Shown one piece after another: positions 1 to 37,962 of a stretch of 37,962 nt of DNA (its first letter is position 1; each line of letters starts with the position of its first letter). This DNA is from Bacillota bacterium. Its GTDB lineage: Bacteria; Bacillota; Clostridia; Christensenellales; Aristaeellaceae. Where the stretch lies: contig JAEWNM010000041.1 of NCBI GenBank assembly GCA_023392755.1, positions 1 to 37,962 on the forward strand. Reading direction: 5' to 3'. Position numbers and translations under genes: made by a program. The notes below the pieces were generated by a model that made no database searches, was not told where the DNA came from, and saw nothing but the letters and a program-made list of their open reading frames with translations.

Positions 1-127
1 TGCGCAAGAATTTCGAAGAAATTCTCTCCTTGCCCGAGCAAACGGCCGCAAAATGGCAACGCCATTTTGCAGTGCAGCGAGGGAAAAACTCAACAAAGTG
101 GCGACAGCCACTTTGTTGATACACTGA
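1..127 (+). repeat. Copy A (right-hand 127 nt only, cut by the window edge) of a multi-hairpin non-coding repeat family
   Basis: Aligns ungapped with 28262-28388 (14 mismatches in 127 by hand count). Hairpins: AGAATTTC-gaa-GAAATTCT (7-25), GCAAAATGGC-aac-GCCATTTTGC (48-70), CAACAAAGTGGC-gaca-GCCACTTTGTTG (91-118). Shared end ATACACTGA. Confidence 0.85.
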
Positions 128-128
128 A

Positions 129-161
129 GCTGCGTTCCCTTGCCAAACAGGGGAACGCAGC
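129..161 (-). terminator. GC-rich hairpin abutting repeat copy A, downstream of the minus-strand acyltransferase gene; possible terminator
   Basis: GCTGCGTTCCC-(loop)-GGGAACGCAGC, a perfect 11-bp stem. There is no clear U-tract on either strand, so terminator function is uncertain. Confidence 0.35.
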
Positions 162-2852: not shown

Positions 2853-2884
2853 GCAAGCACAAATGAATAGCGTGTGTATCTGCA

Positions 2885-3045
2885 TGAAAATGCGGCGCCG
2901 CAAGGCGTCATGGGAACGCGGATGAAATTTCCGGACTATCCCAGTAACCGTGAAACGGACGAACGGGCAAAAGAGCCACTGTCGCAAGATGGGAAGGCGC
3001 CCAAGTAGGATGAAGTAAAGTCGGGAGACCTGTTTACACGTAAAC
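2885..3045 (+). promoter_or_regulatory. Cobalamin (B12) riboswitch aptamer
   Basis: Conserved blocks in order: GGGAAcgcGGaTGAAAttTCC, CCCAGTAACCGTGAA, GAGCCACTG, GGGAAGGCG, and the B12 box AGTCGGGAGACCTG (3019-3032). It sits directly upstream of a BtuF-type binding protein gene. Confidence 0.85.
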
Positions 3046-3094
3046 GCCTCTGGGGAATGGGATATGCTATGCATAGATGGGACTATGCCTTATA

Positions 3095-3128: not shown

Positions 3129-3176
3129 GCTTCCCCCTCAATCTATTCATTTGAATACATGAAAAGGGGTGACCAA

Positions 3177-4109
3177 ATGAAGACATCCAAGACCGTATCC
3201 CTGTTACTGGCAGCCGCACTGTTCCTTGGCCTGCTCACAGGCAGCGCCATGGCAGAAGCCACAGCACCCATTTGCGTAAAGGACATGACAGGCCGGGAAA
3301 TCCAGCTGGATGCGCCCGCAACGCGCATAGTGGCGCTATTGGCCGCCGACTGCGAGATACTCTACGCCCTGGGGGCGGGTGACGCGCTGGTGGGCCGCGG
3401 CGAATACTGCGACTATCCTGAGCAAGTGCAAAGCGTTCCCTCCGTGCAGTCCGGCGCGGAGACAAACATTGAGCAGATCGTGGCCCTCACGCCGCAGGCG
3501 GTGCTCATGAGCACCATGGCGCAGACGGAAGAACAGGTTGCCGCGCTGGAAGCGGCGGGCATCAAGGTCGTGGTCAGCGACGCCCGCGATATTGCAGGCG
3601 TCTATACGGCCATAGAGCTGATTGGCGCGGTGGCCGGAAAGACGGAAGAAGCAGCAGCCCTGACGGAGAGCATGAAAACTGCCTTTGAAGGAATTGGAAA
3701 AAAGGCCGCGGGCGACGGTACCAAAACAATCTACTTTGAGGTGTCTCCCCTGCAATGGGGGCTGTGGACCGCTGGAAGCGGCACGTTTATGGATGAGCTG
3801 GCAACCATGCTGGGGCTGAAAAACGCTTTTGCGGATGTACAGGGCTGGGGCGAAATCTCCCAGGAGCAGGTTATAGAGCGCGACCCCGATTATATCGTCA
3901 CCATTGCCATGTACAACGGCGAAGGCCCCGACCCGGTGGAGGAAATCATGAACCGGGAAGGCTGGCAGGATTTGAAGGCGATAAAGAACAAAACCATACT
4001 CCATGCCGATTCCAACGAAATCTCCCTTCCCGGTCCCCGCCTGGTGGAAGCTTGTGAAACCTTGTATCAGTTCGTGTACGAACCGGAGACACTTGTGCCC
4101 GCGGCATAA
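3177..4109 (+). CDS. ABC transporter substrate-binding protein, cobalamin/siderophore (BtuF/FecB-like) type
   Basis: Signal peptide MKTSKTVSLLLAAALFLGLLTGSAMA and the periplasmic-binding-protein pattern RIVALLAADCEILYALGAGDALVG. Start at 3177 follows RBS AAAGGGGTGA. Lies behind a B12 riboswitch. Confidence 0.8.
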   Translation: MKTSKTVSLLLAAALFLGLLTGSAMAEATAPICVKDMTGREIQLDAPATRIVALLAADCEILYALGAGDALVGRGEYCDYPEQVQSVPSVQSGAETNIEQIVALTPQAVLMSTMAQTEEQVAALEAAGIKVVVSDARDIAGVYTAIELIGAVAGKTEEAAALTESMKTAFEGIGKKAAGDGTKTIYFEVSPLQWGLWTAGSGTFMDELATMLGLKNAFADVQGWGEISQEQVIERDPDYIVTIAMYNGEGPDPVEEIMNREGWQDLKAIKNKTILHADSNEISLPGPRLVEACETLYQFVYEPETLVPAA

Positions 4110-28146: not shown

Positions 28147-28178
28147 AGCCGGGAAGCCGCCGCGCGGCTGTCCCGGCC
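28147..28178. repeat. Left copy of a 32-nt direct repeat (a terminator-type hairpin) flanking repeat copy B
   Basis: AGCCGGGAAGCCGCCGCGCGGCTGTCCCGGCC is preceded by AAAAA. It differs from 28388-28419 at one base (A/C in a bulge position). Confidence 0.8.
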
Positions 28179-28184
28179 CAGACC

Positions 28185-28388
28185 ATCAAAAAACCCTGGG
28201 AGGTATCGGAGGGCCGAGGTCCTCCGATGCTAGATCGCAAACCAGCGACATGTGCGGTGGTTTGCGAGGAATTTTGCAAAAATTCCTTCCTTGCCCGAGC
28301 AAACGGTCGCAAAATGGCATCGCCATTTTGCAGTGAAGCGGGGGAAAAACTCAACAAAGTGGCGACAGCCACTTTGTTGATACACTGA
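28185..28388 (+). repeat. Copy B (complete, about 204 nt) of the multi-hairpin non-coding repeat; MITE-like or structured-RNA element of unknown family
   Basis: Five helices: 28205-28228, 28235-28243 paired with 28259-28267, 28267-28287, 28309-28331 and 28352-28379. The left 75 nt match 37795-37869 (5 mismatches). The right 127 nt match 1-127. No credible ORF. Confidence 0.85.
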
Positions 28389-28419
28389 GCCGGGCAGCCG
28401 CCGCGCGGCTGTCCCGGCC
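28388..28419. repeat. Right copy of the 32-nt direct repeat (hairpin) flanking repeat copy B
   Basis: AGCCGGGCAGCCGCCGCGCGGCTGTCCCGGCC followed by TTTG. Together with the left copy it would reconstitute a single A5-hairpin-T3 bidirectional terminator. Confidence 0.8.
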
Positions 28420-37672: not shown

Positions 37673-37711
37673 AGGCACTTTGGGATTTTGCGTCCCGAAG
37701 TGCCTGTTTTT
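37673..37711 (+). terminator. Intrinsic terminator of fba
   Basis: AGGCACTTTGGGA-ttttgcg-TCCCGAAGTGCCT (13-bp stem with one G-U) followed by GTTTTT. Confidence 0.8.
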
Positions 37712-37794
37712 ATGCGCCGGTGCATTCCCGTGCCCCAATCCAAAATCCGGCTCTTTCGCAAAGTCTATGGCTGGCTCCCCGCCAACCTCGGACT

Positions 37795-37962
37795 ATCAAA
37801 AAACCCAGGGAGGTATCGGAGGGCCGAAGCCCTCTGATTCTAGATCGCAAACCAGCGACATGTGCGGTGAGTGAGGTGAGCGCTGCCAGTGGCAGCAAAG
37901 GGCGAACCGAACGAATCAACCGAAACAAGCGGCTGTAAGCCGCGCCGATTGAGGTTGCGGAG
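37795..37962 (+). repeat. Copy C of the multi-hairpin repeat (left part plus an extra internal module of about 84 nt; cut by the window edge)
   Basis: 37795-37869 match 28185-28259 (5 mismatches in 75). Then comes an insertion with its own hairpins (GCTGCC-agt-GGCAGC, GCGGCT-gta-AGCCGC). GGTTGCG at 37953-37959 then re-joins the consensus (GGTTTGCGA in copy B). Confidence 0.8.

Follow-up and report, generated by a model that had tools for sequence, protein, structure and literature searches.

The repeat found in three copies (A, B and C), all on the plus strand, in the window (the whole stretch of 37,962 nucleotides that was analysed) is a non-autonomous, MITE-like mobile DNA element of ~190–230 nt, and copy C has itself been hit, at the junction between the loop and the 3′ arm of its second hairpin (H2), by a second small repeat. 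The best overall explanation, which we regard as probable, is that of a MITE-like element whose insertion duplicates a hairpin, whose core is constrained on the plus strand and which carries a nested repeat in copy C. Terminal inverted repeats (TIRs) and the duplication of terminator hairpins, both overlooked in an initial annotation of this DNA, make it a mobile DNA element first, whatever role an RNA may have.

Features in the window are collected in Table 1. Copy A is 93% identical to copy B (28269–28388) over 120 nt (nhmmer, E=2e-28), and the initial identification of copy C as a third copy of the repeat is borne out by 92% identity over 79 nt (37791–37869 against 28181–28259 of copy B). 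A covariance model built from other copies matches copy B with E=2e-24 and copy C with E=6e-15. The hairpin at 129–161 is a candidate for the right-hand copy of the terminator targeted by copy A; its position agrees with that of the right-hand hairpin of other copies, its left counterpart falls outside the window, and it would serve the minus-strand gene at 211–1458. Copy C lies, as annotated, downstream of the terminator of fba, a gene named by a match to PF01116 on three metagenome contigs (L001–L003; L numbers denote collected loci).

Table 1. Positions of the three copies, their parts and the neighbouring hairpins in the window
Feature	Position	Strand	Remark
Copy A, right part (H3 to H5 and right end ...CACTG)	1–126	+	Truncated by window start
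Hairpin GCTGCGTTCCCT..AGGGGAACGCAGC	129–161	.	Two bases past copy A right end
Left copy of duplicated target, terminator hairpin AGCCGGGAAGCCGCCGCGCGGCTGTCCCGGCC	28147–28178	.	
Copy B, complete short form, 5′-CAGACC...CACTG-3′	28179–28387	+	209 nt; order TIR, GGGAGG, H1, H2, H3, H4, H5, TIR
Copy B H5	28351–28380		Intrinsic terminator by score on minus strand
Right copy of duplicated target hairpin	28388–28419	.	Followed by TTTG
fba intrinsic terminator, hairpin and T-run	37673–37711	+	77 nt before copy C start (37789)
Copy C, left part of main element	37789–37869	+	Window end truncates copy C (37789–37962)
Copy C left TIR CGGACTATCAAAAAA	37789–37803		
Copy C SD-like GGGAGG	37808–37813		
Copy C hairpin 1	37815–37838		
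Copy C H2 5′ arm TCGCAAACC	37845–37853		Confirms the initial annotation
Copy C near-invariant 15-nt H2 loop AGCGACATGTGCGGT	37854–37868		
Copy C first base of H2 3′ arm	37869		
Nested copy of second, smaller repeat (module)	37870–37962	+	Ends ...GATTGAGGTTGCGGAG at last window base

Ends, target duplication and distribution of the element

Complete copies are 192–229 nt long and contain only mechanical open reading frames, the start of which is not kept in other copies. The element ends in imperfect TIRs (5′-CAGnnTGTCAAAAAA ... TTTTTnGACAnnCTG-3′) and, with its ends fixed by the flanks, reads 5′-CAGACTGTCAAAAAA...TTTTTCGACAAGCTG-3′; the two repeats match at 12 of 15 positions (CAGACTGTCAAAAAA against CAGCTTGTCGAAAAA), and at 11 of 15 in copy B (CAGACCATCAAAAAA against CAGTGTATCAACAAA). 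A search of the collected loci for inverted TIR pairs up to 4 kb apart returned 14, all of them 160–325 bp apart. An outward TTGACA-like hexamer lies 6–9 nt from the tip of each TIR; it reads TTTTTTGACAG on the minus strand in the left TIR and TTGACA or TCGACA in the right one (seen at window positions 28183–28193, minus strand, and at the right end of L065), recalling the outward –35 boxes of some insertion sequences.

Approximately 27 of the 34 distinct complete copies are flanked by direct duplications of a hairpin, 17–35 bp in length. These repeats are locus-specific, contain a stem-loop and usually start with A; the duplicated unit corresponds to the stem-loop plus 0–6 flanking bases, and about half of the right-hand copies precede a T-run. 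Copy B is bracketed in this way by a 32-bp direct repeat, 97% identical and itself a hairpin. A recognisable duplication is absent at L011, L017, L059, L135 and L053, and copy C shows no evident hairpin on its upstream side.

An empty site is available for one locus, that of copy B. In two contigs of related species (L142 and L143) the same flanking genes, encoding a PF06983 protein (88% and 84% identity) and a DUF4489 protein, lie 70–88 nt apart. L142 has a single hairpin, CCGGGACAGCCGCGCGGCGGCCGTCCCGG, followed by TTTG, which is homologous to the duplicated hairpin and carries no element, and L143 has one hairpin, different from the duplicated one. A contig of the same species (L140) is filled exactly as in the window. 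No further pair of filled and empty sites was found among the collected loci.

The element lies at gene 3′ ends, and its context is as predicted for the targeting of terminators: the upstream neighbour is directed at the element in 39 of 56 cases, as is the downstream neighbour in 42 of 51, convergent pairs being the commonest arrangement (gene orientation was assigned by a codon-usage caller validated on this window). Orientation with respect to host transcription is unbiased among complete copies, three lying along and five against flanking genes of one direction ((>E>) 3 vs (<E<) 5). Two loci show further variation at the target. At L006 (1–290) the two flanking terminator copies differ by three compensatory changes (AGAGGATCTGC..GCAGATCCTCT vs AGATGGGCTGC..GCAGCCCATCT), which reflects either selection on both hairpins or self-correction of palindromes. 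L116 (5478–5682) and L056 (4500–4713) are the same locus with the same 35-bp duplicated hairpin, while their H4 regions are wholly different and belong to two subfamilies; the cause is separate insertions into the same terminator or else conversion of one copy by another.

More than 90 copies were found across Bacillota MAGs and gut and bioreactor metagenomes. A genome scan with the hairpin-5 motif added 11 copies in four further Bacillota MAGs, and a metagenome scan with a 17-mer of the H2 loop gave at least 120 stretches, including human-gut and bioreactor sources; ∼100 of the 120 listed hold the element or a relative by iterated nhmmer, and ∼17 are chance matches in coding sequence. A covariance model built from the left-half alignment yielded 97 matches in 100 sources. 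The loop 17-mer matched viral contigs once, at a contig end, and blastn of copy B and one gut copy against plasmid and phage records gave no match. Rfam 15 has no match to the element at the gathering score in the window or in six divergent loci, the only match in the window being a cobalamin riboswitch elsewhere (RF00174 at 2871–3051 (+), 72.8 bits, E=3e-16), with a plus-strand open reading frame (3159–4109) downstream; at E values up to 10, copy B, the six divergent loci and a class-2 locus gave chance-level matches only. No paper containing the loop sequence, in either strand and written as DNA or RNA, came to light in a full-text literature search. The element is widespread among Clostridia, human-gut species included, and seems not to have been described before. 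Many contigs start or stop inside it (L001, L002, L003, L118, L071, L132, L084 and L043); the element breaks short-read assemblies, and copy numbers in MAGs are therefore underestimates.

A second repeat nested in copy C

The initial annotation had noticed extra sequence after GTGCGGTG in copy C and had read it as ∼84 nt inserted within a conserved helix that resumed at GGTTGCG. The insert is real, but it is 93 nt long (37870–37962) and GGTTGCG (37953–37959) is not the 3′ strand of H2: it is the end of the insert, and occurs also in L016, with a different host stem. The metagenome contig L002, identical to copy C and the longest of those carrying it, extends past the window by seven bases only, continuing ...GGTTGCGGAG and then, beyond the window end, GTTTGCG. 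The 3′ strand of H2 is therefore GTTTGCG(A), outside the window, and the insert comprises 93 nt; when the seven bases are added to copy C, the predicted fold closes H2 across the insert. A complete copy C is predicted to proceed with GTTTGCGA, then H3 to H5, and to end in ...CTG. Of the hairpins annotated within the insert, GCTGCC/GGCAGC and GCGGCT/AGCCGC are found in the minimum-energy fold of copy C, whereas CAACC/GGTTG is absent from the predicted fold.

The insert sits between the H2 loop and the 3′ arm, and the same site is occupied in L016; GTGCGGTG / TTGCGGAG is a candidate target duplication of the module. It aligns to the reverse complement of inserts found in the H1 loop of L010 and L005 (z 5–6), L112 holds three related modules in both orientations (z 13–17), and a module profile matches L086, L084, L091, L110 and L043. 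Relative to the host element, the module is inverted in six H1-loop cases (L010, L005, L086, L110, L091 and L084) and co-oriented in two H2-site cases. It also exists away from the main element, as an intergenic stand-alone cluster of tandem or nested copies in L011 (368–700, minus strand), with no main element nearby. Other inserts lie in H4 (L018) and after H2 (L073), and in L086 (2149–2475) H2 is replaced. The earlier reading of the insert as a variable expansion of a functional RNA helix is not supported, as the insert is a second repeat family found inverted elsewhere and on its own. Inserts, loop flip and H2 replacement are DNA-level events in a tolerant element and not conserved RNA expansion segments.

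Identical fba protein is encoded on five metagenome contigs. Of the three listed, one ends shortly after fba; the other two, which reach past the gene, contain copy C and are cut off within it.

Structure and strand bias of the interior

Copy B folds at –96 kcal/mol on the plus strand (z –8.4) and at –88 kcal/mol on the minus strand (z –6.2). Covariation was measured on the left half, since the full-length MAFFT alignment was unreliable in the right half; H1, H2 and H3 were written by hand. Among 22 diverse left halves, 97.2% of cells pair and 14 of 24 pairs are changed on both sides, the copies being related and the changes inherited and non-independent. None of 500 shuffles reached the observed left-half pairing values, and controls with slid partners fell to 32–55% paired. 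The repeat is thus, as annotated, a conserved multi-hairpin structure whose stems covary across the family, and the variation in further copies preserves structure.

The initial annotation had deduced a functional plus strand from two differences in the stem of hairpin 1 between copies B and C, both A-C mismatches on the minus strand. Both are present: TCC in B is CCC in C (G-U to G-C), and CTCCGAT in B is CTCTGAT in C (G-C to G-U); the hairpin-1 loop (GAGG in B, GAAG in C) and two other positions also distinguish the copies. Two switches in a single copy are slight evidence, but the family taken together likewise indicates that the plus strand is the constrained one. The flip at the centre of CCCWGGG (37804–37810; CCCTGGG in B and CCCAGGG in C) likewise exists but carries no information, because the length and sequence of this linker vary across the family. 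In a strand-neutral count, made by Watson–Crick-only hairpin calling and restricted to interior transition-type mismatches in unique hairpins, G-T outnumbers A-C by 18 to 5 overall and by 8 to 0 in H1; a looser count that includes stem-edge extensions, and is contaminated by the edges, gives 27 to 21. In the model-based alignment, which leans towards G-U and in which related copies again share inherited changes, G-U outnumbers A-C by 98 to 30, or by 76 to 17 without the outermost pair. Strand-biased mutation is an unlikely cause, as elements occur in both orientations relative to genes.

In 12 copies that had been found without use of the 15-nt H2 loop (AGCGACAUGUGCGGU), pairwise identity is 97.8% in this loop and 78% in the remaining sequence; in the metagenome copies, which were ascertained through the loop, its invariance is partly by construction. 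The long stem of H4 has an almost entirely different sequence in each subfamily (for example GCGTTTCCCC/GGGGAAACGC vs CAGGAACAACC/GGTTGTTCCTG) around a conserved GCCCGG...AUA/AGA. H5, whose GC stem is flanked by A- and T-tracts, scores as a minus-strand terminator in copy B and is terminator-like in both directions in gut subfamilies. At L108 (576–750, minus strand) the reverse complement of the H2 loop (ACCGCACATGTCGCT) stands between unchanged arms, a DNA-level flip. The GGGAGG 5′ of H1, present in all class-1 copies (37808–37838 in the window with H1), is conserved and single-stranded and nearly repeats the H1 5′ arm GGAGGG; its possible pairing with the H1 3′ arm CCCUCC could provide an alternative structure or mimic an anti-Shine-Dalgarno sequence.

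Compensatory covariation and strand-specific tolerance of G-U of the kind seen in functional structured RNA are present, within a set of related copies. The sequence data support a conserved interior under a single-strand, plus-strand constraint. No sigma-70-like promoter was found inside the element; with no internal promoter and no orientation bias, a plus-strand RNA is something that we infer.

A further possibility is that the element is a purely selfish MITE, in which no single-stranded form (RNA or ssDNA) matters; its hairpins would be palindromic DNA, maintained through intrastrand gene conversion or required as protein-binding sites in double-stranded form. We consider this unlikely, while noting that palindromes can self-correct by template switching and that the inverted loop in L108, the random orientation with respect to host transcription and the tolerance of nested insertions would all fit. 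However, equal numbers of G-T and A-C are predicted in that case, against the observed 18:5, 98:30 and, in H1, 8:0; furthermore, conservation is highest in an unpaired loop of 15 nt that lies far from either end, and the same core is present in relatives without MITE ends.

Two groups of relatives have been noted. The ‘class 2’ loci (L054, L097, L085, L063, L104, L035, L128, L090, L131, L127, L126, L044, L051 and L019) contain H2 with an identical loop, CCTTGCAG, and a stem enclosing GCCCGGT-hairpin-ATAGGCGG, preceded by a different 5′ part with a hairpin GCGCG-GTGTAG-CGCGC and then GGAGGAAGAAC. No duplicated hairpin was seen in them, and each arm of the hairpin at their end resembles the terminal repeat of the MITE (CAGTCTGTCGAAA..TTTCGACAGACTG). 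Of the 14, 8 are located a short distance 5′ of the start of a divergent gene; L131 has no copy at the site syntenic with that of the L035 copy. Long variants at L133 (5372–5542, minus strand), L129 (1023–1185), L040 (218–338) and L068 (6080–6241) are ∼90% identical to each other, and their inner four H2 base pairs differ in each copy, always with compensation (CCGT/ACGG, CATG/CATG, CGGT/ACCG and CCAG/CTGG); those whose sequence reaches that far (L133, L129 and L040) end in a GC-rich terminator-like hairpin of their own.

The mobile form, the long variants with their own terminator (L133, L129 and L040) and class 2, which is without MITE ends, have a core in common: H2 with its loop, then CCUUGC, then a long covarying stem enclosing GCCCGG, a hairpin and AUA/AGA. 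It is conceivable, if somewhat doubtful, that this core is a functional RNA or ssDNA module representing a widespread, unrecognised class of ncRNA in gut and environmental Clostridia; it would then either join structure-guided homing to terminator hairpins or have been captured and spread by a terminator-targeting transposon.

Less probable still is the interpretation given in the initial annotation, in which the repeats are genes for structured ncRNAs, or cis-acting RNA elements, with variable expansion segments, the insert of copy C being one such expansion. The strong covariation and plus-strand G-U bias, the near-invariant loop, the position of inserts in or beside hairpin loops, and the divergent class 2 relatives without MITE ends (L054, L097, L085 and others), some of them near divergent gene starts, are in its favour. 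However, TIRs, locus-specific hairpin duplications and an empty site show transposition at the DNA level; the insert is reverse-complemented at another site, occupies several positions and stands alone; and the element has no Rfam match, no internal promoter and no orientation bias relative to host genes.

Mechanism of insertion and relation to known systems

For the MITE-like element with a constrained core that we favour, a mechanism can be proposed in which a transposase acting in trans binds the inverted repeats and the target is recognised as a structure (an extruded palindrome or cruciform) and not as a sequence. The enzyme would cut at the two bases of the hairpin, and repair would duplicate the whole hairpin, as has been reported for IS1630 of the IS30 family. 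The left hairpin copy would thereby be parted from its T-tract, such that sense transcription from the upstream gene could enter the element, while H5 and the right hairpin copy would restore termination in both directions. The plus-strand G-U bias and loop conservation would then reflect selection on a plus-strand transcript. In ∼0.9 Mb of collected loci (inverted TIR pairs up to 4 kb) no autonomous element with matching ends turned up, and the enzyme family is for this reason a guess; all-against-all blastn of the collected loci for long IS-like repeats gave syntenic matches only.

A literature search for terminator-duplicating elements returned IS1630, IS1272 and SPRITE only. The closest precedent for the mode of insertion appears, by analogy, to be IS1630. 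In Mycoplasma fermentans the inverted repeats of this element measure 27 bp and its duplicated junctions 16, 23, 25 and 26 bp (PMC3317919); in both cases the duplications are long and variable (16–26 bp for IS1630) and do not correspond to a fixed short stagger (PMC2853133, PMC3317919). Duplication of inverted-repeat targets that vary in length and sequence, a trait of the IS30/IS1630 type, is present in the element described here. The likeness is one of insertion behaviour, the collected loci containing no IS30-type partner. In contrast to IS1630, an autonomous element of 1.2–1.4 kb from Mollicutes with a transposase gene and 27-bp inverted repeats, the element is ∼200 nt long, non-coding and found in Clostridia, with 15-nt imperfect inverted repeats and a structured core. 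IS1272 (IS1182 family) of staphylococci also recognises its target by structure rather than sequence, inserting at terminator-like stem-loops of varied size and sequence (PMC5678879); however, it is autonomous and replaces the target inverted repeat, leaving no duplication.

Small size, lack of conserved coding capacity, TIRs, target duplication and filled/empty polymorphism are traits of MITEs that the element shows, the length of its duplication being atypical. Like Correia, ERIC, RUP, BOX and SPRITE sequences it is small, non-coding, multi-copy and intergenic, with inverted-repeat ends and, presumably, folded transcripts (PMC3049150, PMC10969869). Bacterial MITEs and small repeats occur preferentially between convergent genes and are found inserted in each other, and SPRITE resembles a terminator (PMC3049150, PMC10969869). 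Definitions and finders of MITEs assume duplications of 2–10 bp (PMC11602168), the length seen for Correia, ERIC, RUP and BOX; none is known for SPRITE, whereas the element duplicates a whole hairpin of 18–35 bp. It differs also in that its interior is not one long TIR-driven stem, but holds several independent covarying hairpins and a near-invariant loop across very divergent subfamilies.

Insertion in extragenic palindromes is shared with the IS110/IS1111 family, which, however, has no TIRs, duplicates no hairpin and uses sequence-specific targets, whereas the targets of the element share no sequence. A small-RNA module that also exists and circularises alone has been described for ISPpu9 (ssr9) (bioRxiv 10.1101/2025.01.17.633520). 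Several further candidates were set aside. The element is too short for a class C group II intron, matches no group II intron in Rfam and has a duplicated hairpin. Class C group II introns do home to terminator hairpins, but they have no TIRs, do not duplicate the hairpin and need ∼0.5 kb or more of ribozyme. REP, BIME and REPIN sequences are palindromic units of 20–40 nt, single or in inverted doublets, accompanied by a RAYT gene; the unit of the element is ∼200 nt, with five different hairpins in fixed order and orientation. ISAs1, with ‘CAGGG’ ends, was also rejected: the ends of the E. coli H-repeat (CAGGGAAAGATCATCAAAAG and CAGGGCAAGATTACGAAA) have no more than CAG in common in register, and the duplications made by ISAs1 are 8–10 bp.

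A derivative of an ssDNA transposon (a PATE of the IS200/IS605 type or another HUH substrate), with the top strand folding and the H2 loop acting as nick or recognition site, would account for the strand-specific constraint on the hairpins and for the presentation of a conserved sequence by a hairpin loop, which is also seen at the HUH nick sites of rolling-circle origins and IS608 ends. We consider this highly improbable. IS200/IS605 and IS91 elements have neither TIRs nor target duplications, in contrast to the element, which has both; no Rfam match to omega-RNA, IS605-orfB or HEARO was obtained, and a derivation from an IS200/IS605 PATE or from omega-RNA was rejected on these grounds. Furthermore, no tnpA, tnpB or iscB gene adjoins any copy in the gene lists examined. 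Retro-mobility of a SINE-like element, by target-primed reverse transcription at terminators, would fit the variable-length duplications, the plus-strand RNA-like constraints and the 3′-terminal stem-loop (H5), but has to our knowledge no bacterial precedent and is the most far-fetched of these explanations, given precise inverted-repeat ends, duplications bounded by the hairpin and not by a stagger, no poly-A or template-jump signatures and no reverse transcriptase seen nearby.

The element is best filed as MITE-like: it duplicates terminator hairpins in the manner of IS1630, and its structured core is unusually conserved and constrained on one strand. An abundant family that duplicates whole terminators would be missed by finders assuming duplications of 2–10 bp, and it breaks metagenome assemblies: among the matches listed, each contig with copy C ends inside it. 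Insertion that is guided by structure and duplicates a hairpin has so far been reported for the Mycoplasma element IS1630, and would extend to a large group of Clostridia, including human-gut species. With every insertion, one or two genes have their 3′ ends rewired, as the terminator is duplicated and a highly structured 200-nt tail is added, and the near-invariant loop and strand-biased covariation point to a function beyond mobility.
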